A stretch of 64,000 bases of DNA from positions 5,574 through 69,573 of the forward strand of contig JAGLDC010000007.1 of assembly GCA_023145965.1 (NCBI GenBank), written 5' to 3'. This document shows positions 27,735 to 44,270 of the stretch, in pieces. The notes beneath the pieces were generated by a model. That model saw only the letters and a list, made by a program, of their open reading frames with translations, was not told the DNA's origin and searched no databases. The stretch's first letter is position 1; every line of letters begins with the position of its first letter. The DNA is from a bacterium. GTDB lineage: Bacteria; UBP14; UBA6098. The translations under genes were made by a program, and so were the position numbers.

Positions 27735-27761
27735 AAAATATTTATTGACAGAATTAAAGCC
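27735..27761 (+). promoter_or_regulatory. Candidate sigma70 promoter TTGACA-N15-TATAGA upstream of the MEMO-AMMECR1 gene
   Basis: TTGACA at 27735-27740 and TATAGA at 27756-27761, in a 230-nt AT-rich intergenic region. Confidence 0.35.
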
Positions 27762-27864
27762 AATATATAGATTAAAAAGATTATACAGAAGTTGTGAGAT
27801 TGGAAGTTAATACTTTTATTTACTTTGGAGGCATGTAGAGAATAATTGCGACTAATTAGTTAGT

Positions 27865-29382
27865 TTGACCAGCAAGCAAAGGGAGCGCATGAAAAGCAGG
27901 GGAGCCAATAATCGCTTCCATAGGATGTCGAGGCTGGTAAGTTATGGGGTTGCAGTATTCCTCTTGACTCTACCCGCTAAAGTCGCTTTTTCTTTTGAAA
28001 ATGTGCGACCTTGTTGTTGTGCCGGTTATCAATACCCAACTCAACAATCGGAACTTTATTCTCAGGTAGAGGCCTTTCTAAAGCTCTATCCTACCGAATC
28101 CCAATTTAGCAGTATTCAGGCCATCATCGCTCCACAGGCGCCTTATGTATATATCGGCCCTATTCTAGGTGCTGCCTATTCGAATCTGATAAATAAGAAT
28201 TTTGATAGAATTATTATTCTCGGATATGACCCGACAGCAATAGTGCCGACTTTGTATATCGGTGCAAAGATAGCCACGCCCTTGGGACAATTGCGTTCTG
28301 ATGATGTGCTCGCTTCTCGATTAATCGATGAATCCAACATCAAATTCGAAATAGTCGATGCGGAATATCCCCTTCCCGGATCCATAGAGGCCCAATTGCC
28401 ATTTTTGCAATATCTCTATGGTGAAAGACCACTGCTTGCGATAGGATTGGGAGGACAAACTTCTCAAGAGGCTATTAAATTGGGTAATTCGATCTCAGAG
28501 ATTGTGGGCGATAGTAGAACTCTAATTATTGGTGTGTCGAATCTCTCTCAATATTATGATTCTGGTTCTGGAGAGGGAATGGATAGACTTCTTATAGATA
28601 GGTTAAAAGGGTTTGAGTTAGAAAAAATGGGCATCGAATTCGAACAGGGTAGGATACAAGCGGAAAGTCCTGCCGTTCTCATTGCTACCTTGCAAATTGC
28701 TCAAGAAAACGAAGCGGATTATATCGAAATACTACGCTATGCAAATTCGGCTGTTTTAAGCGGAGATCAGCAATCGACAGTTGGTTACCTCACTGCTGCT
28801 ATTGGAAATAAAAAACCTTCTACAGGCGAGATTGAGTGTTTTTCCACCGACGAGGAGAAATATCTTCTTAATTTAGCACGAATGGCGATTAAAGATGTGT
28901 TGGCAATTCCTCGAGAACCCGAAATATCCCAACAGAAGCCAACTGATAATGTCCACCCAGATGGTATTTATCTTACAATCGATTATCAAGGCAAAATCAG
29001 AGGAGGATGTAGCCTTCTTTTTTCCGGTCAACCAATCGACGATTTAATCTCAAGTGCTGCACAATCGGCAGCTTTTAATGATCCCAGGTTCAATCCTATT
29101 ACTTTTGAAGAATTAAATGATCTTAATATAACTTTGCATATGCTCTTTAATGCTCGAAGAATAAATTCTCCCTCTAATTTCGATCCAAATAAAGACGCGA
29201 TTTTTATCAGCAAAGGAAGTTATTCGGCTCTAGTTTTTCCGGGAGAACTTAATTTATTGCTCAAAAAGGAAGAGATTCTCGGTAGAGCTTGTATTAATGC
29301 TGGCCTGCTGTCGAATTGTTGGCGTCAAAACGAAACAAGTGTTTGGTCTTTTGATATCCAGATTGTAAAGGAGGAAAGGTGA
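27865..29382 (+). CDS. MEMO1-family (AmmeMemoRadiSam protein B-like) and AMMECR1 (protein A-like) fusion with an N-terminal basic/hydrophobic anchor
   Basis: VRPCCCAGYQYPTQQSELYSQVEAFL aligns to the Memo N-terminal signature (RKPAVAGQFYPGDPEELRKQ). The C-terminal 180 aa (LNLARMAIKDVL..GCSLLFSGQPIDDLISSAAQSAAFNDPRFNPI) is an AMMECR1 domain. A 46-aa N-terminal extension has a Lys/Arg-rich start then LVSYGVAVFLLTLPAKVAF. Confidence 0.7.
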   Translation: MTSKQRERMKSRGANNRFHRMSRLVSYGVAVFLLTLPAKVAFSFENVRPCCCAGYQYPTQQSELYSQVEAFLKLYPTESQFSSIQAIIAPQAPYVYIGPILGAAYSNLINKNFDRIIILGYDPTAIVPTLYIGAKIATPLGQLRSDDVLASRLIDESNIKFEIVDAEYPLPGSIEAQLPFLQYLYGERPLLAIGLGGQTSQEAIKLGNSISEIVGDSRTLIIGVSNLSQYYDSGSGEGMDRLLIDRLKGFELEKMGIEFEQGRIQAESPAVLIATLQIAQENEADYIEILRYANSAVLSGDQQSTVGYLTAAIGNKKPSTGEIECFSTDEEKYLLNLARMAIKDVLAIPREPEISQQKPTDNVHPDGIYLTIDYQGKIRGGCSLLFSGQPIDDLISSAAQSAAFNDPRFNPITFEELNDLNITLHMLFNARRINSPSNFDPNKDAIFISKGSYSALVFPGELNLLLKKEEILGRACINAGLLSNCWRQNETSVWSFDIQIVKEER

Positions 29383-30698
29383 ACAGGCCTATTCCCAGAA
29401 GGTTTAGGGGGGAACCGGAGATAGAAAGGAAACGGAATAGGAGTTTCTCGCTTATAGATTTTTTAAAAGGGTTCAGGTTGCCGGGTTTATTTATTCTAAT
29501 TGGTATTTTAACAGTAGCAATTTTCCATTTCCTTGGGGGCGAGACTCAAGCAAAACCAATTACTCCGGAAATTCAGTTATCCTCTCTCGATGTAAAATGC
29601 AGGCTTTGTGGTGAGATCAAGCGGGACGAGTCACTTTATATCTCTCTTACAAATGCAGGTATGACTCCGCGAATAGTATATGATATCAATTGCGCTTTCG
29701 ATGGAGTGTTCGATCCCAAAAAAATAATGCCCGGAGATAGATATACCATAGATACCGATAATGAGGGCAAACTGGTCGAGTTCGAACTGGAGCGTTCTCC
29801 ATGGGAGCATTATAGAATTAAACGCCAATGTGATACACTTCTGGGCGTTAAGGATACAATCCCTTTAACTTATGTTATCAAGGCTGCAAAAGGTGAAGTC
29901 AGCAATACTCTTTGGGAATCCATGGTTAATAAAGGTATTCCTGCTGAAGTTATTCTTAGGTTCACCGATATCCTTTCTTTTAATGTTGATTTTCTCACTG
30001 AAACCCGTGATGGCCAGCGCTTTGCGCTTCTTTATGAAGAATATATATTTCATGGTGATGTTATAAAGGTAGGGCGAGTTGTGGCCGCCGAATATTGGAT
30101 TTCAGATACAAGTTATGGCGGGATTTATTACATGGACCCAGACAGTGTCTCGGGATATTATACACTGAGTGGCAAAAACACTAAGAAGGCGCTTTTAAAG
30201 ACACCGCTTACTTACAGACGAATATCGAGTTATTTTTCAAAGAGCCGTTTTCATCCGATTTTAAAAATCTATCGGCCGCATCTCGGTGTTGACTATGCTG
30301 CTCCATCTGGAACGCCAGTTTCTGCCTCGGGTTCCGGCGTGGTAACTTTCGCTGGTTGGAAGGGTGGTTATGGCAATTTTATACAGATTAAGCACGAAGG
30401 TAACATCGTGACTATGTATGGTCACCTTAAGGGATTCGCAGGTGGAATAAAAAAGGGTGTCCGAGTGAAACAAGGACAACTTATCGGTTATGTCGGGACT
30501 ACGGGACTTTCTACCGGGCCACATCTAGATTACAGGGTTAAAGTTAGAGGAGATTTTGTTAATCCCTTGCGCTATGCCTTCCCCGATGGCCCGCCTGTTA
30601 AAAATAAGTATATAAGTGATTTCAAGGAAAAGGCAGTGGATTATATTGGTCTTCTTGAAGCACTAACAGAAAATAATTTCGCTGTAAGGACTCAATGA
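29379..30698 (+). CDS. M23 family (LytM-type) peptidoglycan endopeptidase with N-terminal TM and an OapA/Csd3-like domain
   Basis: HLGVDYAAPSGTPVSASGSGVVTFAGW..GHL..GPHLDYRV are the HxxxD and HxH zinc motifs of M23. GTG start overlapping the upstream stop (GTGA). Confidence 0.85.
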   Translation: MNRPIPRRFRGEPEIERKRNRSFSLIDFLKGFRLPGLFILIGILTVAIFHFLGGETQAKPITPEIQLSSLDVKCRLCGEIKRDESLYISLTNAGMTPRIVYDINCAFDGVFDPKKIMPGDRYTIDTDNEGKLVEFELERSPWEHYRIKRQCDTLLGVKDTIPLTYVIKAAKGEVSNTLWESMVNKGIPAEVILRFTDILSFNVDFLTETRDGQRFALLYEEYIFHGDVIKVGRVVAAEYWISDTSYGGIYYMDPDSVSGYYTLSGKNTKKALLKTPLTYRRISSYFSKSRFHPILKIYRPHLGVDYAAPSGTPVSASGSGVVTFAGWKGGYGNFIQIKHEGNIVTMYGHLKGFAGGIKKGVRVKQGQLIGYVGTTGLSTGPHLDYRVKVRGDFVNPLRYAFPDGPPVKNKYISDFKEKAVDYIGLLEALTENNFAVRTQ

Positions 30699-30846: not shown

Positions 30847-33800
30847 ATGGAATTTAACGCAAGAATAACGAGTGTCGCTATTGTATGCGTATTGCTTTTA
30901 GGTTCGGGCGTTCTTTTTGCTCAACCTACGGAACCACTTTGCGCAGATTTAGTGACAACCGGTTACGGCCTTATTGGTGATACCCTCGAAGGCGATTTGG
31001 TGCTTTCAGGATTCGTTAAAGGGCACAGTGTTTCGCTTGAAGTGATGCCGATGTGTGTTTCTCCAACGCGCCAATACCGTTTTTTCCGCACACCACTGGG
31101 AGCTTCGGTGCCTGATCTACAGACAGATTGGATGCCGATGGCATACACCAATATGGATGGTGGTGGTGACAGCGAAGTATTCAAATACTATGCCGCCGTG
31201 ACCGACGGTGATACAGTGACGTATTCCAATCCTGACGAGGATCCTGCAATGGACCTCTGGCTTATGCACGATTGGTATCGTCCTGACCGTATCGAGGGGA
31301 TTTCGACTTACTATTATCCGAGCCCCACGCGCATTCGTATCAACTGGTATAAAGGCACTGACAGCGCTTCTGGAGTTTATAAATATTATATTTATCGAGC
31401 TCCAAGTGGCCTAGGATATACACTCGAGTATATCGATCCTACCGAAACTCCTATCGATTCGGTTCTAGATGATGGTCGTGCTTGGTATGATTGGTCGGAT
31501 TATGAAGTTACTCCGGATGAATGTTACTGGTATGTTATTGTCCCGATGGACAAAGCTGGATGGATACGCAGGGATGGCAATGATATTTTCCGTCGTTGCG
31601 CCGCAGTTTCCGGTTTTGGATTCCCGCCTTGCGCTCAACTTCAGCCGCTAGACAGATATCATGTCGGTGGTGGTGTGACAATTCGCGTTAATCTCGATGC
31701 TTGCCCCGGCGACCCCGACGAGGTAGTTCAATATCGGTTCCGCAAGTATGGTGTCTTTATTGATTCGGTTTCCGGCGATCCCGATATGTATATCATGGAT
31801 GAAACGGACTGGACGGATACACCGTTCTACTTCTTCTCGACGATGGAGTGTTCGACATACACATTTAGTGCACAGGCGAGATACCTCGGAGGAACGACAA
31901 GTCCTTGGTCTCACCTTATACCGACCTATCCACTTACCACAAACGATCCCACGCCTCCGGGGTGCCCGGATGAAATGTTCGCGCATTCGTATGGCGAGGA
32001 TGGTATATATGTTCATTTCGAGCAAGATCCGGGGGACGATTGTGGAAGTGGAATCCTCGGTTATCACCTTTTCCGTTTCCCTGCCGATTCGATCAGCGAT
32101 CATCTTCCACCGGACTCCAGCGATATTGCTGATTATGTGCTCTGGGAATATTATGTGAACGAAGAGGGGATTTATACATTCCAGGATGATGGCCCGACCG
32201 ACCCGGTTATTGATCTTATAGATAATGTCACATATTATTATGTAGTATGTCCTTATGATTCTGCTGGCTGGACAAATTGGCTTGATTGTGGGGATCTTCA
32301 GATAGATACCGCAACTGTTGATAAGGGCGTTGCCGCGCCAATGGCAAATAGGCTTCCGGCATATGCTTGCGATGGGGAGATTTATGTTGAATTCGTAGAT
32401 ACAACCCGTTGTGATGCCACCGAGGTCGAGATACAATGGTCGGCGGAACCGGAATTTGGCGGCGCGACATTCGTCGGCGTTGGCCCGATACCATTACACG
32501 GTGATACCGCGATCGGCGGTTTCTTCGATTTCACGAACCATGACGACGGTATCTGCACTAACTGGGATACGCTACAAGTCAATATCAGTGGTCTTTATGA
32601 AACACAGTGGTTCTTCCGCGCGCGTTTCTACGATATTCACAGCAACGTTTCCGAGTGGAGCAATATTTCTATAACACGCGTTGATAATACTCCGCCAACG
32701 ACAACGAGCATTATTAATGTTCAGTCTTTCTCGGATAGCGTTAATACTGTCGATATTCTTTTGAACTGGGATGAAAGTGATTTCAACGATGCTGATGGAA
32801 TTGGTATCGATTCGGTAAAAGTCTATCGTTCAGCAATGGCAGGCGATTTAGGAACCGTAATTGCCACAGTTTCCAAATTTGATAACAAGTTCGTCGATTA
32901 CGATCCTGTTCCGACGAACAACTGGCACGATAATGTTTATCGAGTGGTGCCTTATGATTATTGCGGACATATGAACACCGAGGGCGGCCAAGGTTGTTTT
33001 GCAGCACTTGGACAGCATCCGCCGGCAGTCCCGCGTATCGACACGGTTCTTGTTAGTCACTATCTCGATTCCTTCACTATAGTATGGTCGGATACCGGCA
33101 TAAGCCCGCTTACGACGAAATATGTTCTTCGCCACGGTGGAACCGAAAGCTGGCTTTGGATCGGCGACACAATTATCGCCCCCAATACTCACCTCGGCAC
33201 GGTGCCTTCGCATCGCTACACCTTCCCAATAGAGGAACTTTTCGGTGGCCCGAGGCATTATTTCATGATGTATGCCCTTGATGGTGAATCCCCGGCTAAC
33301 CAGAGCGGTTGGTCAGAGGTTTTTGCTTTCGATCTTCCTGAGGCGTTGACCGTCACGGATACTATTCATATTCGCGCTGGATGGAACTTTATCAGTCTTC
33401 CGGTTATGCCAGCCAATAATGAGGCTAATGTCATATTCCCCGGTGGACTTGATTATTATGAATGGAATCCAACGACCTCGATATATGATCCGATTACTGT
33501 TATGCAACCGGGTAAAGCCTATTGGGTGCTTATGTCATCCACAGCGGATTATCCGATTACAGGTATTCCTGTGGTCAGAGTCGAGGAGACTGAAATTGGC
33601 CCTGGATGGTGGAGTATTGGAACTCCTTATGATTCTACTGTTGCAATGCTTGGGAGCGGTTTTACCTGGGACGGAACCGGTTGGGCACGAGCCTACGGTT
33701 ACGATGGTGAAACACCTTATTATACGACAACCCATCTGAATGGTGGAGAGGCGTATTGGCTTCTTCTCAGCGGAACAGGGGATTTTTATTCCGAAGCTGG

Positions 33801-34464
33801 AATGGCTAAAGGGATAGTCGATGATCCGGTTATCGATTGGAACATAAACATCGATATAGATGGCAGTCCCATCGAACTGGCATATTCGACTCACGCCGAA
33901 AGCGGAATCGATGCGGCAGATATTGTAATGCCGCCTGCGCCGCCATCGGGTGCCTTCAGCCCATGTTTCGTTGACGAATCTGGCTATCGTTACTTGCGCG
34001 AGGTAAGGCCGGATGGTGTATGGAATATCTCGGCGCCATATGGCTCTATCATTAGCTGGAACGCAAAGGCGCTTCCTTCGGTTGAACTTGAGATTGTTAC
34101 CGATTTTGGGACGTTTGATATGCACAAGGTTGAAAGCATAGAATTCCTTGGGACAGCGAAAGTTGTTACAAAGGGCGTTCTTCCGACCGAGTTTACTCTT
34201 GGTCAGAATGTTCCAAATCCATTCAATGCTACATCTACGGTGCCGTTCAGCGTTCCGGTGGATTCAAGAGTGTCCATTAAGATATACGACATCAATGGCC
34301 ACACGATTTCGACCCTCGTCGAGAGCTATGTCGAGGTTGGAAGCCATCGTGTTGTTTGGGATGGTTTGGACGATCTCGGACGATCTGTTCCTTGTGGAAT
34401 TTACCTTTGTAGGATGGAAGCGGGGAGCTTTGCCGAGACAAGGCGAATGCTTCTAGTGAAATAG
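30847..34464 (+). CDS. Giant secreted surface protein (1205 aa) with a T9SS C-terminal sorting domain
   Basis: Signal peptide MEFNARITSVAIVCVLLLGSGVLFAQ. Aromatic/Asp-rich beta-sandwich-like repeats. C-terminus QNVPNPFNATSTVPFSVPVDSRVSIKIYDINGHTISTLVE..HRVVWDGLDDLGRSVPCGIYLCRMEAG matches the type-A T9SS CTD. Confidence 0.75.
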   Translation: MEFNARITSVAIVCVLLLGSGVLFAQPTEPLCADLVTTGYGLIGDTLEGDLVLSGFVKGHSVSLEVMPMCVSPTRQYRFFRTPLGASVPDLQTDWMPMAYTNMDGGGDSEVFKYYAAVTDGDTVTYSNPDEDPAMDLWLMHDWYRPDRIEGISTYYYPSPTRIRINWYKGTDSASGVYKYYIYRAPSGLGYTLEYIDPTETPIDSVLDDGRAWYDWSDYEVTPDECYWYVIVPMDKAGWIRRDGNDIFRRCAAVSGFGFPPCAQLQPLDRYHVGGGVTIRVNLDACPGDPDEVVQYRFRKYGVFIDSVSGDPDMYIMDETDWTDTPFYFFSTMECSTYTFSAQARYLGGTTSPWSHLIPTYPLTTNDPTPPGCPDEMFAHSYGEDGIYVHFEQDPGDDCGSGILGYHLFRFPADSISDHLPPDSSDIADYVLWEYYVNEEGIYTFQDDGPTDPVIDLIDNVTYYYVVCPYDSAGWTNWLDCGDLQIDTATVDKGVAAPMANRLPAYACDGEIYVEFVDTTRCDATEVEIQWSAEPEFGGATFVGVGPIPLHGDTAIGGFFDFTNHDDGICTNWDTLQVNISGLYETQWFFRARFYDIHSNVSEWSNISITRVDNTPPTTTSIINVQSFSDSVNTVDILLNWDESDFNDADGIGIDSVKVYRSAMAGDLGTVIATVSKFDNKFVDYDPVPTNNWHDNVYRVVPYDYCGHMNTEGGQGCFAALGQHPPAVPRIDTVLVSHYLDSFTIVWSDTGISPLTTKYVLRHGGTESWLWIGDTIIAPNTHLGTVPSHRYTFPIEELFGGPRHYFMMYALDGESPANQSGWSEVFAFDLPEALTVTDTIHIRAGWNFISLPVMPANNEANVIFPGGLDYYEWNPTTSIYDPITVMQPGKAYWVLMSSTADYPITGIPVVRVEETEIGPGWWSIGTPYDSTVAMLGSGFTWDGTGWARAYGYDGETPYYTTTHLNGGEAYWLLLSGTGDFYSEAGMAKGIVDDPVIDWNINIDIDGSPIELAYSTHAESGIDAADIVMPPAPPSGAFSPCFVDESGYRYLREVRPDGVWNISAPYGSIISWNAKALPSVELEIVTDFGTFDMHKVESIEFLGTAKVVTKGVLPTEFTLGQNVPNPFNATSTVPFSVPVDSRVSIKIYDINGHTISTLVESYVEVGSHRVVWDGLDDLGRSVPCGIYLCRMEAGSFAETRRMLLVK

Positions 34465-34490: not shown

Positions 34491-37400
34491 ATGATAAAAA
34501 TAAACATAAAGGATAAGGAGCGAGCCTTGAGAGTAAAGACTATGCCTATTATACTCGGTATTCTGGCTCTCGGGCTTTTTGGAAGCCTGTTAGCGCAATC
34601 AGCGCCTGTAGTTGAGCCGGAGCCGGCATATACTGCGGGACATGTCAACCCTTTGCTGTGGTCCGAACCTACAAGCTATAGTGTTACAATTTCAGCTTGG
34701 GAGATTTGGGTTGATACAGCATCTACCGGATTTCCTGATTGGCCGGATTCGGCCTATGAGGAGCTTTTGGGACCAGATAGAATCTCTATCGGCCCGATAC
34801 CGGTGACAGATGCTGCTGATTTCGGTTCTACCTACGGAAGCGAATATGCTTATCCGATCGGTAGCGGTGTTTATGGCGATTCCGACGATCCTCTTACTTC
34901 AGGATTGCGGTATTGTTATAAAGTGCGTTATCGTTGGTACACACCGCCTTCAACTTACGGGTTCTCCGATTGGTCTGAGACACATTGTAGTGTTCAGGAT
35001 GCCGCACCACCTACTGTCGAAATTGATTCTTTACCGGATTGGTGGAATACCGATGAGGTATCGATTCATTATATAGCCAATGATGCCCTCGTTGGTGAAG
35101 TCGATAGTGTGGTATTATATTACAGAATGCCGCCTTCGACCGATTGGATTAGGGTGTTTGCAGAAGCACCGCCACCACCTGGTTACGACGACTATATGGA
35201 ATTTGATATTACAGGAACCGGCGATGGTGAATACGAGTTTTTCATCGGCGCATGGGATGCCTTGGGCAATGGAACCATTCCACTGGGAACGCTTCATGCC
35301 CCAATGGCTGACACAAGGGTTGATGATACTGATCCGACAAGTGCCATTATAGAAACGGAAGATTTACCGCTTTATTATACAGGTTGGCCCGAAGGAATTA
35401 ATCTATTTTTCTCAGCCTCTGATTCATATAGCGGTTTAACAGCAGTCTATCTTGATACCGATTACGGCGATACTCCGCCGTTACCTTTCGATAGTCTATT
35501 TTTCCCGGCTGTGGAAAGTGTCACGCGCGATACCTTCGTATTTTCACGCACCGAGAATGGCGAGTGGAACATTCGTGCTAGAGCTGTCGATTTGGCCGGT
35601 AATCATGAATCAGAAACGACCTGGGATTGGACTTTTTATGTCGATACTCAGGAGCCTGAGTTTACTTCGACAACGGTTATAGACTCGACAACGGTTTCCC
35701 ATCGCTATGATGTTCCTGCAATGCATGGCTGGACAAACTCTCGGGCCGTCAAAGTAACGCCCGAAAGCGCTATCGACCCATTGGTTGATGGTTATGCCAG
35801 CGGCTTGGATACCGTTTCGGTTGCCTCGAATTCGGCATTCACCGAGGATTATATGGCTTTTGTGGCAGGAACACCGCCCTATATTTGGATTACTTCGGAT
35901 GACGACGGCGCAAAGGAAGCATATGTCCATCTCAAGGACAGAGCTACTAATATCAGCGAGTCGAGGTTTGGGGTAATCGAACTCGATACCGAGGTTCCGG
36001 TTCTTTCGGCATGCACACTTTGGAACCATGTAACGCCGGATACCTACACCGACACAACGGTTTCGCTCACTGTCGATGTTACCGCTAATCTCGATCCTTA
36101 TTACGGCTCGGCCAGCGGAATATACTTCGCGCAGAATGCTTCCAATCTTAATTCCATTGATACTGACGATTGGCAGGCGGTAGATGGCGATTATACATTT
36201 ACCTTCGATGGCTTCTCATCGGGCGAGTGGATGACGCTTTATGTTGTAGTTCGCGATAGTGCTGGTAACGTTAGCGAAGCTGCGATAGATAGCATAAGGT
36301 ATATTCATGGAAATAAGTGGGTCGAAATATTCAATATTCGCGATATCGACGGCCCCGATGTTACAGGAAGATACACCGATACAACCGAAATATCTATTGA
36401 GATAGCATACGGTAATGGAATAGATACATTATTGGTTTGGGATGGAAGCTCCATGTTGGGATTACCCGATACTGTTTTCCCTGTGGACGATCCTACCGGT
36501 GATTCGGATACGATAACCATAATTGGCAAACTTGAAAGGACAGACGGTTGGCATACATTGTCCGTTCGCGGAAAGACCGATTATGATATTATCCTCACAG
36601 ATCCGGATACTGCTTCGATAGAGCTTGATATTCAGCATCCGACGGTTCCAGATTTTCTCGTGTTAGACCTTACGATACACACAGAACCTTCAGGTCCTGC
36701 AGATGTTGCCGATACAGGTTGGACGAACGATGCAGATGTTAAAGGCATGTTCACTGGCAGCTACGACACAGGTGGCGAATCCAGTGGAACCGGCCTTTAT
36801 AGGTATAAGGTATCCATCGATACTCTAGTTCTCGGCACTGATGCATTCCCGGGGACTTATCAAGTTGACTTTGCGCTTCCAGTCGCTGATGGCCCTAGTG
36901 ATGTTATCGGTGATGTTCAGGATTCCAGCGGGAATTGGGCCTCTGAAGATGCCGACCCGATTTTCAACATTAAACTCGATACACATATTCCGACTATAGA
37001 CTCGATCCAGCTTTTAGATGCTACAAGTCTTTCACCGGATTATACCGACGATCCAAGTATCGTTGTTAAGATTTTCGGCGATGATGATCCATACACGCCG
37101 GCTTATGCATCGATTTTCGAGGATGGAACGGATTATCCAAATATCGTCCGCTCGATACGCCGTTCATTCAGTTCGGGGACATTAAGTTATATGCTTACAG
37201 ATACGCTCACAGGCGGTATTAAGACGGTTTATGTTGCTCTTATGGATAGAGCTGGGAATATCTCGGCGATTTCTTCGGCCACAATCGTATATAATAAGGA
37301 AATCGTTCTCGACATGTCGCTTTACGACTGCGATAGCGAACCAGAGAATAATGAATGCACGAATGACCCAACTGTTGGTGTGCATTTGTTTGCTTATGGA

Positions 37401-39278
37401 ACTCCGGCTGCAGCTTATATTCTTTCCGAGACACCGGGCGGTTTGCCCGAACCTGACGACCCGCGTTGGATAGACTATCCCGAGAGCGGTGATACTTTAT
37501 TTACCATGGTATTGGATGCCACCGAAGGCGAAAAAGTTATTTATGGATGGCTTCTTTCCGAGAGCTATATAGTCAGTGAGATGGACGAAGACACTATCTA
37601 TCTTGACATGACAGCACCGGAACAGAATGAGGGGTTCTTCGTATGGGATACCACTTCGGGAGATAACTTCCCCACCATATTTAAAGCGGCTATGGGCTGG
37701 TCGAACGAGAGTTATATATTTGCGCAGGTGCCTTTCTCCTATGATGAGGGCTGTGGAACCGATAGTATAAAGTTCTCTGGTGGTATCGACCTTGAGCTCT
37801 GGAGAGACATCGACCATGTTATTGATATCGAGGAACATAGTATTTCATTGGACTTCAGAACGGATAGTCTTCCATTGGTTATCGACACAGACTCCGAGGG
37901 TAGAAAGCAGATAGTTTCGCGTCTTCGCGACTCCGCAGGTAATTGGGGCAATGTTTTCGATCCATTGAGTCAGATAACCATACACGGCGGTTACGATGTT
38001 ACCGCACCTGATTTCGATTTTCTCGATGTTTTCAGTGAAGAGGTTACGGATAGCGTTACTTCGGTGCTTCCGAACTCTCTTCCAATAAAATTCATGGACG
38101 ACCCCGCACCGGGCTTTCTCTGGAAAGTTTGCTGGCAGATCGACTCCGATCCAACCAGGATAAGTTGCACGACTTACGATTCAACCTGGGATACGCCTGC
38201 CGATAGTATTTTCTATGCGGCTTTCCCGGGCGATTTAACAAGTGGTCTTGTTCCCGATCAGCATTACGATCTCAGTATAGTAGTGATCGATTCGGCGGGT
38301 AATCCAAGCGATCTTAAAACAGCGGATCTATTAATAATACCGGATTCAATCGAGTTCGCTTTCGAGGTTGTCGATACTAATGATCTCGAAGATAGCGATT
38401 ACTGTGGCGAAGTAACTGTCGCCACGCATGTTATGATGGATAATCCTCCGGATTATATGAGATTCGGCGAAAGCGCAAGCGGTTTAGGTAGCTGGATGGA
38501 TTATTCCGAATATGGGGAGTTCACGTTTAGCTCCAGCTTGAACCAGATGAAATATGTCTATGCTCAGATTCGTTATGGAACACAGGAATCAAAGATTGCG
38601 GTAGATTCAATCATTCTCGATACTCAGAATCCAAGCGTTTCTAATATCGAAGCCTTCGATATATCGACTGGCGATAGATATTATTCGGACGATGTGGAAA
38701 TTGGATTTAAGGCCTATGGTGCCAGCGATCCTAATCCGGGTATTGTGGGTGCTATGCTCATTGCTGAGGATGCAGATTTTACACTGAATGTTCAGAAGTG
38801 TGAACTCGATCTTACTGATACAACTTGCACTTATACTGCTTCAGAACTTGCAGATATAGATGATGATGCCTCAGCTTCCGGTGAAATTCGACAGGATGCT
38901 AGAGTATTTTGGGTGAAGTTGCTCGACCGCGCCGAGAACCCGGCTTCGATTAAAATGCCCGCTATTGTTATAGATTTAGATGAAGAGCTTGTGACCAACT
39001 TCCCAAATCCTTTCGATCCGACGGAAGAACCCACTATTGTTAGGGTCAAGGGGATTTCGATAGGTGGATCGGTAGAGGTTAGTATCTATGATAATTATGG
39101 TAACTTGGTATGGAATACGACAGTCTCCGCTCTCGGTGGAAGTAAAACAGTTGATGTTTTGTGGAACGGCAAGAACGGAAAGGGTGATGTTGTTGCCGGA
39201 GGAGTTTATGTGGCAATTGTAGAGGTCGAAGGAGAAATCATAAAACGCAAAATAGCTGTATGGAAGGGGGGTGAGTAG
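34491..39278 (+). CDS. Giant secreted surface protein (1595 aa) with a T9SS C-terminal sorting (FlgD-Ig-like) domain
   Basis: N-terminal signal (MIKINIKDKERALRVKTMPIILGILALGLFGSLLAQS). Many Ig/cadherin-like Asp/Thr-rich segments. C-terminus TNFPNPFDPTEEPTIVRVKGISIGGSVEVSIYDNYGNLVWNTTV..VLWNGKNGKGDVVAGGVYVAIVEVEG fits the CTD pattern. Confidence 0.75.
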   Translation: MIKINIKDKERALRVKTMPIILGILALGLFGSLLAQSAPVVEPEPAYTAGHVNPLLWSEPTSYSVTISAWEIWVDTASTGFPDWPDSAYEELLGPDRISIGPIPVTDAADFGSTYGSEYAYPIGSGVYGDSDDPLTSGLRYCYKVRYRWYTPPSTYGFSDWSETHCSVQDAAPPTVEIDSLPDWWNTDEVSIHYIANDALVGEVDSVVLYYRMPPSTDWIRVFAEAPPPPGYDDYMEFDITGTGDGEYEFFIGAWDALGNGTIPLGTLHAPMADTRVDDTDPTSAIIETEDLPLYYTGWPEGINLFFSASDSYSGLTAVYLDTDYGDTPPLPFDSLFFPAVESVTRDTFVFSRTENGEWNIRARAVDLAGNHESETTWDWTFYVDTQEPEFTSTTVIDSTTVSHRYDVPAMHGWTNSRAVKVTPESAIDPLVDGYASGLDTVSVASNSAFTEDYMAFVAGTPPYIWITSDDDGAKEAYVHLKDRATNISESRFGVIELDTEVPVLSACTLWNHVTPDTYTDTTVSLTVDVTANLDPYYGSASGIYFAQNASNLNSIDTDDWQAVDGDYTFTFDGFSSGEWMTLYVVVRDSAGNVSEAAIDSIRYIHGNKWVEIFNIRDIDGPDVTGRYTDTTEISIEIAYGNGIDTLLVWDGSSMLGLPDTVFPVDDPTGDSDTITIIGKLERTDGWHTLSVRGKTDYDIILTDPDTASIELDIQHPTVPDFLVLDLTIHTEPSGPADVADTGWTNDADVKGMFTGSYDTGGESSGTGLYRYKVSIDTLVLGTDAFPGTYQVDFALPVADGPSDVIGDVQDSSGNWASEDADPIFNIKLDTHIPTIDSIQLLDATSLSPDYTDDPSIVVKIFGDDDPYTPAYASIFEDGTDYPNIVRSIRRSFSSGTLSYMLTDTLTGGIKTVYVALMDRAGNISAISSATIVYNKEIVLDMSLYDCDSEPENNECTNDPTVGVHLFAYGTPAAAYILSETPGGLPEPDDPRWIDYPESGDTLFTMVLDATEGEKVIYGWLLSESYIVSEMDEDTIYLDMTAPEQNEGFFVWDTTSGDNFPTIFKAAMGWSNESYIFAQVPFSYDEGCGTDSIKFSGGIDLELWRDIDHVIDIEEHSISLDFRTDSLPLVIDTDSEGRKQIVSRLRDSAGNWGNVFDPLSQITIHGGYDVTAPDFDFLDVFSEEVTDSVTSVLPNSLPIKFMDDPAPGFLWKVCWQIDSDPTRISCTTYDSTWDTPADSIFYAAFPGDLTSGLVPDQHYDLSIVVIDSAGNPSDLKTADLLIIPDSIEFAFEVVDTNDLEDSDYCGEVTVATHVMMDNPPDYMRFGESASGLGSWMDYSEYGEFTFSSSLNQMKYVYAQIRYGTQESKIAVDSIILDTQNPSVSNIEAFDISTGDRYYSDDVEIGFKAYGASDPNPGIVGAMLIAEDADFTLNVQKCELDLTDTTCTYTASELADIDDDASASGEIRQDARVFWVKLLDRAENPASIKMPAIVIDLDEELVTNFPNPFDPTEEPTIVRVKGISIGGSVEVSIYDNYGNLVWNTTVSALGGSKTVDVLWNGKNGKGDVVAGGVYVAIVEVEGEIIKRKIAVWKGGE

Positions 39279-39280
39279 TC

Positions 39281-41095
39281 ATGAGTAGAAAATTTAAACT
39301 CGACTATCTCTGGATTATCCCGCTTTTCGCATTGGTTTCTTTCTCAGCTTTCGCTCAGGATGGCAGTGCCGGTCAAGCCGGGGAGCTTCTCCGTAGTGGA
39401 CTCGATGCAAGGAGTTTCTCTATGGGCAGAGCATATACTGTAATGCCCACAGGGGGCGATGCCCTCGTTTGGAATCCCGCCGGATTAGGAAAACTCGGAC
39501 GCTGGGAATTTCGTTTCATGCATGCTCAAGGCTATGTCGATAGCAGAACCGAATACGGAAGTTTCGCTATTCCTATCGGGGATCTCGGTGGTTTTGGTAT
39601 AGGCTTTGCCAATGAAGGAGTGACCTCTATAGAGGGCCGCGATGCTTTCAACCGTTCTACCGAAGAAATTTCTTGGGGAGAATCAGCCGCTCTGTTTGGT
39701 TGGGGTCGGGCGTTCATGCAGAACAAATTGTATGGTGGTCTTACCGCTAAATATGTGATGCAGAATATGGGAGACGAATCCGCAAATGGTTTTGGCGGCG
39801 TCGATGTCGGCTTTCTGTCTAAAGAATTCATGTTTAAATATCGCGTTGGTTTGACGCTTCAGAACCTCGGTGCAGCCGAGGTAGCTGGTGATGCCTATCC
39901 GATGACCGTTCGAGCTGGCGTCGGTTGGAGGGTTCTTAATGACCTTTATGTTACAGCCGATGGTGAGATGGTTTCTGGAAGGGATATTTCACCGCGAGTC
40001 GGCGCTGAATATCATCTTGGATGGGTAGCAATCCGCGCAGGATACGATATAATGAAGCCAGAGCTTACATTCGGACTTGGGTTGATGATCGACAATATAG
40101 CCGGTAGAGTTGCAGGGACTTATCCGAGATTAGATTATGCCGGAGGAGCATTAGCGCCGATAGGCAATAATTTTGCGAGAGTTTCTTTGACTCTTATGGG
40201 CGAGGAAATGAGCAAACTTGAGGATATTGAAGGTGATCCGTGTTCACAGTTATCGACCATTGAACCGCATATGAGTAAGCGCGGTTTTGTTGGAGCGAAA
40301 GCAAACTTGATCTACGGAGAATGCCGTTTCAAGGCTGAAGCTCTTGAAGCACCATTTGACATTGAACCTCGTTTTGGCGAAATTCATCCCTTCTTCAATT
40401 CTGCCTATTATGGTAAGTATGGTTCTAACTGGATGACCGAGATAGTTACGGATACTCTAGCTCAGACTGTATTTAGCCAGAAAACACATTATATGTATGC
40501 TGAAACGCGTATGGCTAAAGGCATAGATGAAGAAGCCAAAATCCTTCTTGATCAATTGATTTCGGCAGGTGGCGACAGCGCTCAATATGACCTTCGCCTT
40601 CAATATGATCTAGCTTTGATCAATGAAGAATTAGGCGAAACTGACGCGGCACTTAAGGACTACGAGTCTATCGCAGGGAAGAATGTAGATGACCCTGTTA
40701 AGGTTCTCGCTCTTTATCGTGCAGCAAATATACTCAGAGATAGAGATAAGACGAAGGCAATTAATTACCTAGAGACTTTAGTAAGTAAATATGGATCAGG
40801 CTTTTATGATGAAAGCGGTGAAAGAATCGGCTATCCCATGTTCCCCAAGTATATGGATAACTCGATTGCCGATGACGCTACGATCCTGTTAGCCGATATT
40901 ATTTTCTCCACTGCAAGCGGAGACCCAACCGTGCTTCGTAAAGCATTGGGACTTTATCTAGATGTTTTAATTTACTATCCGGATATGCAAGCTTCGATTC
41001 GTCGTGAAGCTGCGGAAAAAGCCGCTATATGTTTCGAAGAACTTGGAGATTCCGCGAGCGCAGCTTCGATGCGCTCGAAAGCGGGTGAGATTTAA
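39281..41095 (+). CDS. Putative outer-membrane beta-barrel (PorV/PorQ/PorP-type, FadL-like) fused to a C-terminal TPR-like domain
   Basis: Signal peptide ..LFALVSFSAFAQ. N-terminal motif DARSFSMGRAYTVMPTGGDALVWNPAGLG resembles the conserved start of T9SS-associated FadL-like barrels. Gly/aromatic-rich alternating strands follow to ~aa 330. The C-terminal 250 aa is helical repeats (TPR-like). Confidence 0.4.
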   Translation: MSRKFKLDYLWIIPLFALVSFSAFAQDGSAGQAGELLRSGLDARSFSMGRAYTVMPTGGDALVWNPAGLGKLGRWEFRFMHAQGYVDSRTEYGSFAIPIGDLGGFGIGFANEGVTSIEGRDAFNRSTEEISWGESAALFGWGRAFMQNKLYGGLTAKYVMQNMGDESANGFGGVDVGFLSKEFMFKYRVGLTLQNLGAAEVAGDAYPMTVRAGVGWRVLNDLYVTADGEMVSGRDISPRVGAEYHLGWVAIRAGYDIMKPELTFGLGLMIDNIAGRVAGTYPRLDYAGGALAPIGNNFARVSLTLMGEEMSKLEDIEGDPCSQLSTIEPHMSKRGFVGAKANLIYGECRFKAEALEAPFDIEPRFGEIHPFFNSAYYGKYGSNWMTEIVTDTLAQTVFSQKTHYMYAETRMAKGIDEEAKILLDQLISAGGDSAQYDLRLQYDLALINEELGETDAALKDYESIAGKNVDDPVKVLALYRAANILRDRDKTKAINYLETLVSKYGSGFYDESGERIGYPMFPKYMDNSIADDATILLADIIFSTASGDPTVLRKALGLYLDVLIYYPDMQASIRREAAEKAAICFEELGDSASAASMRSKAGEI

Positions 41096-41148: not shown

Positions 41149-42516
41149 ATGAAGTTTAACCGCATCGCAAACGGCGTGATGCTGGCAGTGCTTTTCGGAA
41201 TTATTGCAATTTGTGGAACCCTAGCGGCGCAAGCGCCAGCTGAACTGGATTCTATTTGGTTGCATACTTCCGATGCCAAGTGGGAGAAAACCGACGAAGG
41301 TTTTAATCTCACGATGTCATGGGAGCTTTACATCAAGAAAGCTCAAGATAAAAAAGGCTCTAAATTTTCAGGTGAATGGACTAAACTTTCTCCTGAGAAT
41401 GTAGAGTATACTTATCGCGTAGAAGTAGCTACTGATTCGGTTTTCAGCCAAATCGATAAGACTCAGGAAACTAATGAGGCTTCGCTAGTAATCCGCGATC
41501 TAAACTTTGACAAGTTTTATACTTCCAGAGTGCGTATTGTAGATCCTCCGGTCAATTATCGAGACGATTTCGCTGCCGGAACGATTTATAAACATGAAAA
41601 GGAAACCGGCGGAAAAAGCGAAGAACGAAAAGGCGTTATTGGTTTCTTACTTTTCGCCTTCGATAAGGGCGGATGGCAAACCTACGTTATTATTGCTCTC
41701 GCTTTATTGGGAATCCTGGGAGTTATGCCGATAACATGGTATAGACTTCGTTTGGCGAATATCTTCCCGCCGAATAAACCCGGGTTCTTATATTCGGCTT
41801 TGCCTTTCGATAGAACCGGGAAATGCGATCATCTATCGCCTAAGGGCAATGTCTTTGTTCGCGAAGTGGCAAAATATTGGTCGCGGGCTATGGCGGCTAT
41901 GGCATCCGATCCCTCGAATTGGGAGAGCACCGATGCTTTTATTAAAGCTACGGCTCAAGAACAAGAGGAAGTTAAGAAGCGCCGTTGGATCGAAGAGGGT
42001 CTTCCTGCGATAGAGCAGGCTATCGATGTCTGTAAAAATGGCGTTCCCGGTATCAAACTGAAGAAAAAACCGCTCGACTACCCGTTCCCGCGCGTTCTTC
42101 TCGCGGCGCTGGAAAATCAGAGGATTAACCGCAATAACTGGTGGGCGAGTCAGGAAATGGACAGAGCCGTTGAGAACACCTCGTTTAAAGAAATCGACGA
42201 TCTTAAGGGATGGAGTGTCACGGCATTCTGGGCTTTAGGTTCGGTTGAGCCTATGCTCGGTTTGTTCGGCACTGTTGAAGGAATTCAGAAGGCCTTCATG
42301 AAGATCCAGGAGCAATTAAAGGAAAATCCGGATGCGCCTATGGCCGATACGATTGAAAACCTCGCAGGAGGTATTCATCAAGCGCTTATTACCACGTTCT
42401 TCGGATTGCTCTTCGGTATTCCGTTCATGATGATTTACTATTATTATCGTGGAAAAGCTGATTGGGTTTTCTCCAAATGGGAGGAAATCGTTATCGACCT
42501 ATTAAACAGGGCCTAA
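41149..42516 (+). CDS. exbB: MotA/TolQ/ExbB-family proton channel protein with a ~200-aa N-terminal extracytoplasmic domain
   Basis: C-terminal part has three TM helices and the family motif MLGLFGTVEGIQKAF. Strong SD AAGGAGG lies 5 nt before the ATG at 41149. The N-terminal signal peptide is followed by a beta-rich domain with no recognisable family. Confidence 0.75.
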   Translation: MKFNRIANGVMLAVLFGIIAICGTLAAQAPAELDSIWLHTSDAKWEKTDEGFNLTMSWELYIKKAQDKKGSKFSGEWTKLSPENVEYTYRVEVATDSVFSQIDKTQETNEASLVIRDLNFDKFYTSRVRIVDPPVNYRDDFAAGTIYKHEKETGGKSEERKGVIGFLLFAFDKGGWQTYVIIALALLGILGVMPITWYRLRLANIFPPNKPGFLYSALPFDRTGKCDHLSPKGNVFVREVAKYWSRAMAAMASDPSNWESTDAFIKATAQEQEEVKKRRWIEEGLPAIEQAIDVCKNGVPGIKLKKKPLDYPFPRVLLAALENQRINRNNWWASQEMDRAVENTSFKEIDDLKGWSVTAFWALGSVEPMLGLFGTVEGIQKAFMKIQEQLKENPDAPMADTIENLAGGIHQALITTFFGLLFGIPFMMIYYYYRGKADWVFSKWEEIVIDLLNRA

Positions 42517-42532: not shown

Positions 42533-43102
42533 ATGCCCAGAAAACAAACAGAGGCTGTACCTTCTGCTGACTGGACCTCCTTAATCGATATCATCTTCCA
42601 GTTGCTCATCTTCTTCATGGTGACGCTGGCTATGGGGACAGTCGAGCAACAGGCTAGTGCCCAGATGGAAGGTGAAATGGATGAGAGCCTACCCGAGTTG
42701 CCCGGAATGAGTAATCTCGGTGAAGCCTTAGAAATCGGCCCCGGCGTGATACTTATTCATGCCGCTTACGATGAAGATAATGAAGTTGCAGGCGATATAG
42801 TAACATATCTCTTTACGAACGAGATCTCGAATATTGAAGAGGCGAAGAAAGATTCAACTCATAGCGCGGGTCCGTTCTCTTGGGATAAAGCCTATAAGAA
42901 GCTGCAAAAGCAGCTTACTTTTGCTCGTGATTACAACGAAAACCTTCCGAGGGTCGAGATGAGGGCTTTTAAGGGAACTCCTTACGGTAATGTTCTCGAT
43001 ATTATGAACCTATGCTATCACGACGAACCCGAAATGAGAATCGATCAGGTATATTTTAGGTTTGCTAGATTAGCTAGAGAGCAATTGGGAGGTGGAAGTT
43101 AG
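42533..43102 (+). CDS. exbD: ExbD/TolR-family biopolymer transport protein (paralogue 1)
   Basis: N-terminal DWTSLIDIIFQLLIFFMVT is the ExbD/TolR TM signature. SD AAGGAGGGG. Confidence 0.75.
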   Translation: MPRKQTEAVPSADWTSLIDIIFQLLIFFMVTLAMGTVEQQASAQMEGEMDESLPELPGMSNLGEALEIGPGVILIHAAYDEDNEVAGDIVTYLFTNEISNIEEAKKDSTHSAGPFSWDKAYKKLQKQLTFARDYNENLPRVEMRAFKGTPYGNVLDIMNLCYHDEPEMRIDQVYFRFARLAREQLGGGS

Positions 43103-43663
43103 ATGCAGAGAAGATATCTTAATCTTGAAAGCGCCGACTGGACGCCTTTAATCGATATTATCTTCCAGTTGATGATCTTCTTCCTGGTAACGATGAGCGT
43201 TCTTCCGGCGGTGAAATCTGCACCGCAGGTCGAGGGGAATATGTCGCTTCCGACACCGAATCAAGGAAGTTCTGAAGTCTCACACCTTATTCAGATATTG
43301 AAGGTCCCTTTCAAATCCGACATGTATGGTTATCTTGTTCTTGACGGCACTCCGCAATCTGCCGAATTCTATAAGGATGTTGACAGAAACCGTCAGTTTT
43401 TAGGTGACCAATATGCATTGGAAAGTGAAATTGTTCTTGGAACAAATATGGGGCTTTGGTTTAACGAGACAAGTCTTAAAGCGAAGTTTCAAGAAGCCTT
43501 CAGTCAACAGGATGTTAAGGTGATTATTAGAGCTGCCAGGAATGTCCCATATGGAGAGGTAGTAAAGGTTCATTCGATATTGTTTAATATCGGTATATCC
43601 AAGATCGCTTGGTTGGATGGCAAGATTGGAACTCTTAAGGCTGACATCAAGGAGGTGAGGTAG
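43103..43663 (+). CDS. exbD: ExbD/TolR-family biopolymer transport protein (paralogue 2)
   Basis: DWTPLIDIIFQLMIFFLVT. The start directly abuts the previous stop. SD GGAGGTGG. Confidence 0.75.
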   Translation: MQRRYLNLESADWTPLIDIIFQLMIFFLVTMSVLPAVKSAPQVEGNMSLPTPNQGSSEVSHLIQILKVPFKSDMYGYLVLDGTPQSAEFYKDVDRNRQFLGDQYALESEIVLGTNMGLWFNETSLKAKFQEAFSQQDVKVIIRAARNVPYGEVVKVHSILFNIGISKIAWLDGKIGTLKADIKEVR

Positions 43664-44230
43664 ATGAGCAAACTCAAACCTACCTATAAAGTTGTCGTTT
43701 TAAGCTTCGTCGTTATTTTATTGGCGATGTCTTTCGGTTGTAGAAACGCTGTCGAAGGCGAGAGCGGTTTCGAAACTGAAGATGGACCGAAGATAATCTT
43801 CCGTGGCGGTTATGGTAATATTGTTATCAAGTATCAACCACCGCCTGAACCAATATTCCAAGTTGGTAATGCAACTCGATATCTCGATTTCAATGAGTTA
43901 CAAAAGAAATTTGGTATCGTCGAGCAACCTTTAATTCTTTCTTATACTGTGAAAACTTCTGTGATGAGTGCGAGTATAGAAAGCAATACGCTTGATCCAG
44001 CATTCGATAACGAAATTCTTGCGGTTATCAAGAGCTGGACCTATACCAGATGGGGCTTTGGTAGATTAAGGATCAAGATTGAAATGGCGAGAAGCCGAGT
44101 TACCGTAGATATGAGTGGAGCTAATCTTGCGGATAGAGTTCCTAATATGAGCATGCCACGCTTTGGCGAAGCCAAAGATATGGTCGCTGCATACGGTTTC
44201 GGAAAGGTTTCTCAGGCAGGTATAGATTAA
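43664..44230 (+). CDS. Lipoprotein / TonB-like energy-transducer candidate (by synteny after exbB-exbD-exbD)
   Basis: Signal peptide ending SFGC (lipobox-like). Short Pro-rich QPPPEPIFQ. C-terminal beta region. The position matches tonB in Bacteroidetes-type exbB-exbD-exbD-tonB loci. Sequence evidence is weak. Confidence 0.3.
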   Translation: MSKLKPTYKVVVLSFVVILLAMSFGCRNAVEGESGFETEDGPKIIFRGGYGNIVIKYQPPPEPIFQVGNATRYLDFNELQKKFGIVEQPLILSYTVKTSVMSASIESNTLDPAFDNEILAVIKSWTYTRWGFGRLRIKIEMARSRVTVDMSGANLADRVPNMSMPRFGEAKDMVAAYGFGKVSQAGID

Positions 44231-44237
44231 TAACAAA

Positions 44238-44270
44238 ACGCCCGTCTTGTGGCGGGCGTATTTTGACATT
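44238..44270 (+). terminator. Rho-independent terminator closing the cargo/Exb unit
   Basis: ACGCCCG (44238-44244) pairs with CGGGCGT (44253-44259), 8-nt loop, then ATTTTGACATTTTTT. Confidence 0.6.

Follow-up and report, generated by a model that had tools for sequence, protein, structure and literature searches.

A conserved cluster in a UBP14 genome

In the 64-kb window analysed here (64,000 nucleotides of contig JAGLDC010000007.1, from a bacterium of the UBP14 lineage; "the window" means this whole stretch), an open reading frame (ORF) scan placed eleven co-directional genes between 27.7 and 49.3 kb. They encode a TolQ/ExbB-type motor together with two giant surface proteins that bear type IX secretion system (T9SS) C-terminal domains (CTDs), an outer-membrane barrel and a periplasmic scaffold with tetratricopeptide-repeat (TPR)-like helices. 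The eight core genes, and the hairpin between the last two, are as follows.

30847..34464, plus strand: giant-1, 1205 aa, with signal peptide, FN3 and immunoglobulin (Ig) repeats and a T9SS type-A (FlgD-Ig) CTD
34491..39278, plus strand: giant-2, 1595 aa, with signal peptide, Ig-like repeats and a T9SS-type CTD
39281..41095, plus strand: gene 5, in which a PorV/PorQ-family outer-membrane barrel at residues ~25-310 is joined to a CpoB/YbgF-like TPR region at ~320-604
41149..42516, plus strand: long TolQ/ExbB-type proton-channel subunit, 455 aa, PF01618 68.7 bits (cutoff 22.9)
42533..43102, plus strand: ExbD/TolR-type subunit 1, 189 aa, PF02472 37.2 bits, transmembrane Asp19
43103..43663, plus strand: ExbD/TolR-type subunit 2, 186 aa, PF02472 52.9 bits, transmembrane Asp18
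43664..44230, plus strand: gene 9, a predicted lipoprotein of 188 aa with a TonB/TolA-C-terminal-like domain, invariant lipobox Cys26 and a Y-x-PPP-x-P-I-F motif
44238-44259, plus strand: GC-rich hairpin of 9 bp with a T-run, -18.8 kcal/mol, z -3.6, intrinsic-terminator-like or attenuating
44312..47674, plus strand: periplasmic scaffold, 1120 aa, with signal peptide, TPR-like helices over ~750 aa, a PEGA-like beta-sandwich and a six-bladed NHL beta-propeller

All nine ORFs that the original prediction had listed from 27865 to 44230 are among the eleven and were found at those positions. Its domain assignments (Memo plus AMMECR1, Peptidase M23, FlgD_ig/T9SS-type CTDs, PorV/PorQ barrel plus TPR, MotA_ExbB and two ExbD) were reproduced in Pfam and NCBIfam searches, for which all cutoffs given are the curated ones of the models. 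The tight junctions that it described were confirmed, with a 4-nt overlap at 29379/29382, a 2-nt gap at 39278/39281 and abutting genes at 43102/43103 and 43663/43664; the remaining intergenic gaps measure 16-148 nt, and Shine-Dalgarno-like purine-rich stretches stand ahead of most starts, as claimed. A hairpin scan found no terminator between the giants and the Exb genes. The terminator-like hairpin reported after gene 9 is real and, judged from its sequence, may terminate or attenuate transcription ahead of the scaffold gene in this genome. The proposed end of the unit at 44230 was not upheld, as the conserved gene order runs past the hairpin into the scaffold gene.

When GTDB species were scanned, each represented by one genome, 22 loci (UBP14-like and Zixibacteria) came to light; the closest (82% ExbB identity) belongs to 'bacterium UBP14_UBA6098', and others are labelled Zixibacteria. 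In 22/22 species-level genomes, as far as the contigs reach, the core genes lie collinearly on one strand in the order giant-1, giant-2, barrel/TPR, long ExbB, ExbD, ExbD, lipoprotein and TPR-PEGA-NHL scaffold. Core ExbB identities among these loci are 42-82%, protein lengths are conserved, and the long ExbB family consists of proteins of ~445-470 aa.

An exhaustive HMMER search of 1.84 billion representatives returned 121 proteins at E < 1e-10, most of which, beyond the query's own family, are MotA/ExbB proteins of 430-760 aa that match in the C-terminal channel domain only. By this search the N-extended ExbB, which had been offered as a peculiarity of the locus, belongs to a broad class. When five distant long ExbBs were looked up, all five (5/5) lay in the same kind of cluster. 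The cluster of candidate division KSB1 consists of an 824-aa CTD protein, split giant-2-like genes, a 619-aa barrel/TPR protein, ExbB, ExbD, ExbD, small ORFs and a 1029-aa TPR/NHL protein, and on one distant contig the CTD giants and the barrel/TPR gene diverge from ExbB-ExbD-ExbD-small-NHL, forming two operons. Profile hidden Markov models (HMMs) recognised the barrel/TPR protein (E 3e-49 and 2e-25), giant-1 (4e-43 and 3e-49) and giant-2 (3e-16 and 2e-47) in two distant clusters, and in distant clusters also the scaffold (1e-28) and the lipoprotein (5e-5).

The block is thus kept across at least three candidate-phylum-level groups, and a linkage that outlasts phylum-level divergence and operon rearrangement speaks strongly for a single functional system, as had been proposed; the refuting tests named with that proposal did not overturn it. 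One might suppose instead that a housekeeping Ton/Tol module has come to lie beside unrelated surface-protein genes by chance or operonic juxtaposition, given that ExbB-ExbD-ExbD arrangements are common and that there is no second ExbB in the 64-kb window (nor a second ExbB or ExbD in the 747 kb examined, which include it). Against this supposition stand the linkage in every species-level genome and every distant cluster, one of them with rearranged operons, and the non-standard architecture of the ExbB, the ExbDs and the TonB-C protein alike. Chance juxtaposition is essentially excluded by synteny, and we consider it close to refuted.

An extended ExbB and a lipidated TonB/TolA-C-like protein

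The channel subunit is encoded by an ORF of 472 aa whose likely start lies 17 codons downstream at 41149, as in an identical database protein. It consists of a cleavable-looking signal peptide, a periplasmic FN3-like beta-sandwich, a first transmembrane (TM) helix, an enlarged cytoplasmic loop that is longer than in E. coli ExbB, and TM2-TM3; an AlphaFold2 model places beta-strands at 33-139 and the helical core after them. The predicted N-terminal extension is therefore present, and the protein has twice the length of an ordinary ExbB, but the periplasmic part is a sandwich of ~110-140 aa combined with a longer cytoplasmic loop and not a domain of ~200 aa. The best NCBIfam model is TolQ, at 58.5 bits far under its equivalog cutoff of 221, and the exbB equivalog cutoff was not reached either. 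In a Foldseek search the ExbB model matched TolQ at the top (E 2e-5, 20-22% identity) and then ExbB, with probability 1.0, followed by marginal matches to PomA and ZorA. GldL and PorL are absent from these structural matches, and because no GldL/PorL-like match was obtained the motor is assigned to a class other than GldL/GldM. A Zorya-like defence system was considered and rejected, as seven cluster proteins had no PADLOC match and ZorA was marginal in Foldseek (E 0.03).

The N-terminal periplasmic region of long ExbBs varies greatly by lineage, with total lengths of 438-761 aa. The nearest outgroup ExbB has a Pfam fn3 match at the position of the beta-sandwich, and one long ExbB (among L035:10001-11875 and L034:10001-12286) bears a CLIPPER_2 domain. 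A Zixibacteria-type subclade has an extra gene of ~185 aa between barrel/TPR and ExbB (L013:9427-9987, L015:9365-9922, L016:9451-10011, L017:9417-9968 and L018:3866-4426). In its product a signal peptide is combined with a beta-sandwich paralogous to the N-terminal one of ExbB ('DSLWVHI...'), a single C-terminal TM helix and a tail of basic residues, so that the periplasmic domain of ExbB, with a TM helix, exists as a free-standing module too. Of the two ExbD/TolR-type subunits, D19 in ExbD1 and D18 in ExbD2 are each invariant in 23/23 homologs, KSB1-type loci included, and the two proteins share 47% identity over 58 aa, confined to the TM segment.

Gene 9 has no Pfam or NCBIfam match. In an alignment of 20 homologs the signal peptide ends at an invariant Cys after Gly or Ser, which identifies the product as a lipoprotein, and the motif Y-x-P-P-P-x-P-I-F is likewise invariant. 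The hydrophobic segment of these 20 homologs lacks a conserved His, and no S-x-H-x-L-x-S TM anchor is present. The F-E-R-E-V ... R-W-R-Y-E-P-G stretch of gene 9, which we take to recall the N-P-x-F-D ... S-W-x-Y-T-R-x-G motif of E. coli TonB, is paired with that motif by hhalign, weakly; TonB_C and TonB_2 appear sub-threshold in 3/20 members, and a profile search of the PDB gave nothing meaningful. The search that was informative on the identity of gene 9, and the sole one, was that with its fold: an AlphaFold model (19 database homologs) has a core at 66-155 with a predicted local distance difference test score (pLDDT) of 75-90, arranged alpha-beta-beta-alpha-beta-beta, and this fold appears TonB/TolA-C-like. 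On the strength of this model, gene 9 is predicted to be a lipid-anchored protein of TonB/TolA-C-like fold. The 'TonB-like' label of the original prediction appears to hold for the fold and fails for the identity, since the lipobox anchor and the missing TM His motif exclude a canonical TonB.

Surface giants, barrel, scaffold and flanking genes

Giant-1 is acidic and Cys-rich, and its start at 30847 is likely, as in an identical database protein. Family lengths are fixed at 1198-1217 aa. Its CTD scores 29.8 bits with FlgD_ig (cutoff 27) and 19 bits with TIGR04183 (cutoff 23). In a database search, matches outside the family covered no more than the final ~100 aa. They came from T9SS type-A sorting proteins of Bacteroidota, Ignavibacteriae, Calditrichaeota, Latescibacterota and other groups, and reached ~30 proteins annotated as T9SS type-A. 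Giant-2, whose length is conserved at 1460-1600 aa, is very acidic (D+E 270 vs K+R 80) with repeated D-x-[AS]-G-N motifs. It matches Big_13, Big_3_2 and, weakly, CHU_C in Pfam, and the C-termini of PorZ and PorU in NCBIfam. In profile searches of the PDB, the giant-1 family matched the PorU CTD (6za2, E 9e-5) and giant-2 the CTDs of PorU (1.4e-4) and PorZ (5m11, 7.6e-3); these searches gave CTD matches alone and nothing that pointed to a role of the protein bodies. The last ~90 residues of both giants share the pattern N-x-P-N-P-F-N ... IYD..G ... WDG ... G.Y. By sequence comparison, the closest counterparts of the giants' CTDs appear to be the CTDs that PorU and PorZ retain.

The barrel protein of the window scores 79.6 bits with PorV_fam (E 3e-22; curated cutoff 90). 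Across its family, PorV_fam matches 19/19 members (best E 6e-34), the PorV2 (PorVQ2) model 19/19 and PorQ 18/19. The TPR domain would be periplasmic, because it lies C-terminal to the barrel. In its half of the protein tol_pal_ybgF (TIGR02795) was detected in 4/19 family members (E 1.4e-7), and in the PDB the family profile matches CpoB best (6g5s, E 1e-4), a TPR similarity that is not specific. C321 and C348 are invariant.

These features bear on a Ton-like energised uptake function, in which a polymeric or hydrophobic substrate would be captured by the giants, with the FadL-related PorV-type barrel as the channel and the TonB-C-like lipoprotein and the motor as its gate. The Ton systems of Bacteroidota and Fibrobacter share with the cluster the ExbB-ExbD-ExbD-TonB gene order, the TM Asp of ExbD and the predicted TonB-C-like fold of gene 9; this order is common in the Fibrobacteres-Chlorobi-Bacteroidetes (FCB) group, and the Fibrobacter genes FSU_2400-2403 that follow it are up-regulated on cellulose (PMC6851124). 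In loci L004/L005 a TonB-dependent receptor lies just downstream. However, the ExbB is twice the normal length, and the transducer is lipidated, with a short PPPxP only and no TM His motif or TM link to the motor. The barrel protein has, by family searches, no Plug domain and no recognisable TonB box. No Plug-containing TonB-dependent transporter is a conserved partner, the downstream receptor being absent from other loci, and the cluster contains no SusD-like, glycoside hydrolase or other enzyme or substrate-binding genes. Energised uptake is, in our judgement, improbable.

The scaffold is collinear in all loci that reach it. Its profile matches NHL propellers in the PDB (E 2e-59, profile positions ~820-1070), and of 18 family members Pfam detects NHL in all (18/18) and PEGA in five (5/18), along with several TPR families; no TolB-family match was obtained, the propeller being of NHL type. 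A comparable protein, PorE (TPR, propeller, CP-like Ig and OmpA), has been read as a CpoB-TolB-CP-Pal-like module, possibly driven by a TonB/TolA-like transducer (PMC12204202).

This resemblance brings in a second candidate function, an envelope-integrity and division system of the Tol-Pal/PorE type, in which the motor, the TolA-C-like lipoprotein, the propeller scaffold and the CpoB-like TPRs would tether or constrict the outer membrane against peptidoglycan, the M23 peptidases would remodel the wall and the giants would be surface or S-layer-like proteins. It would account for TolQ being both the best NCBIfam and the best structural match of the channel subunit, for the TolR-like subunits and TolA/TonB-C-like fold, for the CpoB/YbgF match of the barrel's TPR half and for peptidoglycan hydrolase genes (M23) on both flanks of the cluster. 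The scaffold, with its six-bladed propeller, TPRs and Ig-like CP/PEGA domain, is like PorE, which has been read as a compact Tol-Pal, and Bacteroidetes are reported to have no identifiable tol-pal loci (PMC12204202). The conserved core, on the other hand, contains no Pal or other gene for an OmpA-like peptidoglycan-binding domain, the propeller has no TolB N-domain, and no TM-anchored TolA with an SHLS motif was found in the cluster. Also unlike Tol-Pal and PorE, the cluster has two ExbD paralogs, and the giant CTD proteins and the PorV/PorQ barrel are integral to it. The two giants are the motor's most constant partners in all lineages including KSB1, for which a Tol-Pal analogue has no evident need, and M23 and Memo genes are absent upstream of the KSB1 cluster. 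We regard a role of this type as unlikely, if the least so of the competing functions.

The CTDs and the barrel equally invite comparison with the T9SS pairs PorV-PorU and PorQ-PorZ and with GldLM-SprB, which the cluster resembles in its PorV/PorQ-type barrel, its PorU/PorZ-like CTDs, the co-encoding of giants with an outer-membrane partner and a 5:2 motor driven by the proton motive force (PMF). The Ton/Tol motor could replace or supplement GldL/GldM as a cargo-specific energiser of T9SS-like secretion or attachment for just the two giants, through or at the PorV-like barrel, which was the foremost idea of the original prediction. Gene content parallels porP-porK-porL-porM-porN (outer-membrane barrel, lipoprotein, 5:2 motor and periplasmic protein), the scaffold resembles PorE, and the missing GldL/PorL-like match would fit a separate motor class. 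Yet the motor is of the TolQ/ExbB-ExbD class, the barrel bears a C-terminal TPR, and barrels of the PorV/PorQ kind serve as small FadL-like shuttles or anchors and not as translocons. The cluster contains no PorK/N ring, no SprA/Sov-sized protein or SprA translocon and no PorU-like sortase; none of SprA/Sov, PorK/PorN and PorU was seen among the annotated genes of the 64-kb window, many of whose ORFs were unscanned. CTD proteins also occur elsewhere (an amidase at 62014-63339; L036:231-1643), which implies that export has a general route, open to the giants as well. A dedicated energiser of secretion is, in our view, quite unlikely.

The remaining features of the locus lie upstream of giant-1 and beyond the scaffold.

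27659-27702: hairpin after icd, -25 kcal/mol, z -6.7, just ahead of the promoter candidate
27745..27773, plus strand: sigma-70-like promoter candidate TTGACA-17-TAGATT, upstream of the Memo fusion gene, consensus match 10/12
27865..29382, plus strand: exported Memo plus AMMECR1 fusion, ORF of 505 aa, probable start 27889
29379..30698, plus strand: membrane-anchored M23 peptidoglycan endopeptidase, ShyC/MepM-like, PF01551 107.6 bits
47652..49241, plus strand: accessory TPR protein, 529 aa, TPR families, overlapping the scaffold gene by 23 nt
49246-50151, minus strand: second M23 peptidase, MepM/Pgp3/DipM-like, directly after the TPR gene

Upstream of the cluster the isocitrate dehydrogenase gene (icd) ends at 27636. 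A promoter-like site had been placed upstream near 27735 and is present at 27745-27773, as a consensus match only, since promoter-type sites in the region are no more numerous than in shuffled sequence. Memo and AMMECR1 domains are normally cytosolic. The fusion (Pfam Memo 102.7 bits, AMMECR1 83 bits; NCBIfam TIGR04336/TIGR04335) has a hydrophobic N-terminal signal or anchor segment in 5/5 homologs examined (the window gene, L028:7043-8533, L029:7062-8534, L030:6951-8543 and L036:7203-8651), and no radical SAM partner of the AmmeMemoRadiSam type adjoins it in these five genomes. The M23 protein has a TM segment at residues ~28-56 and scores 223.8 bits with the ShyC model, under the equivalog cutoff; that of L036 additionally bears Csd3_N2. 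The order Memo/AMMECR1, M23, giant-1 recurs in L028-L030 and in the distant L036. The pair stands directly upstream in three UBP14-like contigs, with different genes farther upstream in all, and also on a Zixibacteria-type 499-kb contig (ExbB 45% identical), beside unrelated deaminase and SurA-like genes.

Beyond the scaffold, the 529-aa TPR gene is 40-62% identical in UBP14-like loci, weakly similar (22-30%) in some loci of Zixibacteria type, and missing from L004. The opposite-strand M23 gene is kept at this place in UBP14-like loci, L024 and L026, and is thus common, not universal. On the Zixibacteria-type 499-kb contig (L004/L005:18061-21356) genes for a GT2 glycosyltransferase, a VTT-domain protein and a TonB-dependent receptor with CarboxypepD_reg and Plug domains come after the cluster, a run that other loci do not conserve.

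Elsewhere in the window, the N-acetylmuramoyl-L-alanine amidase at 62014-63339 (minus strand) has a T9SS type-A sorting domain (TIGR04183 25 bits, cutoff 23), an odd case of a peptidoglycan amidase with an outer-membrane export signal, which indicates other T9SS-type cargo in this genome; beside it a 529-aa ORF (60362-61951, minus strand) has no NCBIfam match at E <= 0.001. A T2SSE/PilT-type secretion ATPase (23921-25114) lies between the biotin carboxyl carrier and biotin carboxylase genes (23431-26453) in an aconitase-acc-icd run, an insertion shared with the related contig L030 (2613-5615). At 6689-9292, and unrelated to the cluster, an 867-aa protein fuses a TIGR03960 B12-binding radical SAM domain to a TIGR03936 radical-SAM-associated domain.

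A proposed envelope-spanning machine

The identities of the components, their folds and topologies and their very strong synteny are shown by the results above. From them we infer protein-protein contacts, a direction of force flow and a physiological output, and propose that the cluster encodes one PMF-driven, envelope-spanning machine that does mechanical work on surface proteins, a reading to which we give a probability of roughly 0.45. In this proposal, a pentamer of the long TolQ/ExbB subunit would surround a heteromeric ExbD1/ExbD2 axle in the inner membrane (ExbB5-ExbD1/ExbD2, 5:2), both ExbDs retaining the proton-binding Asp. In the periplasm, the FN3-like domain of ExbB and the enlarged ExbD domains would engage the lipidated TonB/TolA-C-like protein and the TPR-PEGA-NHL scaffold, which in turn would contact the CpoB-like TPR below the PorV/PorQ-type barrel. 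In the T9SS, PorQ holds PorZ and PorV holds PorU, and the barrel could likewise hold the T9SS-type CTDs of both giants, which would be exported by a presumed general T9SS of the cell. The M23 endopeptidase may open peptidoglycan for assembly of the complex.

The likeliest output would be force or movement applied to the anchored giants, for adhesion or gliding-type surface translocation, as in Agl-Glt or in Flavobacterium, where GldLM drives the SprB adhesin. By analogy with these systems, a motor-driven surface-protein apparatus (adhesion or gliding-type) is the most likely output, at modest confidence. Of the functions that had been offered, 'cargo-specific energised export' appears the weakest, and anchoring or mechanical coupling would fit better, because the only outer-membrane barrel is small and of PorV/PorQ type, and the cluster encodes nothing of translocon size.

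In its described composition, the cluster is like Agl-Glt of Myxococcus (including the Nfs sporulation paralog): both have a TolQ-like and two distinct TolR-like subunits, a protein with a TonB-like domain, one very large and smaller exported TPR proteins, outer-membrane beta-barrels and surface-exposed adhesive proteins. The ancestral Agl-Glt core complex (AglR/Q/S with GltD/E/G/C) comprises a TolQ-like protein, two TolR-like proteins, a TonB-like protein and large and small TPR proteins, and occurs as a clustered unit of unknown function outside myxobacteria (PMC3169522). The two differ in that GltG has a TM anchor and binds AglR, while gene 9 is predicted to be a lipoprotein, and in the PorV/PorQ-type barrel with TPR, the T9SS CTDs on the surface proteins and the periplasmic FN3-like domain of ExbB found here. 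Clusters described as a 'new force transducer' combine a TolQ-like protein and two heterologous TolR-like proteins with TPR and vWA proteins (PMC12204202); here a lipoprotein with a TonB-C fold takes the place of the TM-anchored vWA protein, and the cluster has the giants, the PorV/PorQ barrel and the NHL scaffold in addition.

Several points weigh against a PMF-driven surface machine. The route of motor coupling through gene 9 is unproven, and it would be unprecedented because gene 9 lacks the TM helix by which TonB, TolA and GltG bind their motors; the gene 9 model is moderately confident overall (mean pLDDT 60.7) and sequence support for TonB_C is sub-threshold. Giant-1 stays under the TIGR04183 cutoff (19 vs 23), the barrel protein of the window under that of PorV_fam (79.6 vs 90), and the giants, with conserved lengths and moderately conserved sequences, are unlike typical fast-evolving gliding adhesins. 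The general T9SS is presumed, and in this genome a credible terminator hairpin lies between gene 9 and the scaffold gene. Finally, all carrier organisms are uncultured, and the cluster is known from genes alone.

A broader claim would be that the cluster represents, in candidate phyla related to the FCB group (Zixibacteria, UBP14, KSB1 and others), a hitherto unrecognised class of envelope-spanning machine, in which a Ton/Tol-type 5:2 motor is coupled to a PorV/PorQ anchor of T9SS type without a TM-anchored transducer and moves or loads two dedicated giants. It would be a third, independent way of driving surface motility or adhesion by a motor, next to GldLM-SprB and Agl-Glt, and could also form an evolutionary bridge from Ton/Tol systems to the trans-envelope core of the T9SS. 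We hold this to be possible, though doubtful. In keeping with the statement that this is not a described system, no description of the cluster was found in the published literature, and public annotations of its proteins read 'hypothetical' or 'MotA/TolQ/ExbB family'. All modules are of known kinds; as far as can be told, their combination is undescribed, as are three architectures, namely the FN3-extended ExbB, the lipidated TonB-C protein and the fusion of a PorV/PorQ barrel to a CpoB-like TPR.

Ion-driven 5:2 motors (MotAB, ExbBD, TolQR, AglRQS, GldLM and ZorAB) are emerging as a universal power source for work beyond the inner membrane, and each newly wired output of such a motor is informative on envelope mechanics. 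The cluster would add a well-delimited and phylogenetically broad example that is unusual in three respects: its channel subunit has a periplasmic domain of its own, its TonB-C-like module is anchored by lipid, and its PorV/PorQ barrel is fused to a CpoB-like TPR domain. It would bring together two fields that are usually kept apart, force transduction by Ton/Tol systems and type IX secretion or gliding, and would allow a concrete test of the recent proposal that TonB/TolA-like transducers drive TPR-propeller proteins of the PorE kind. It would also place in context large families of giant proteins, annotated as 'hypothetical', from phyla that are abundant in sediment and the subsurface.

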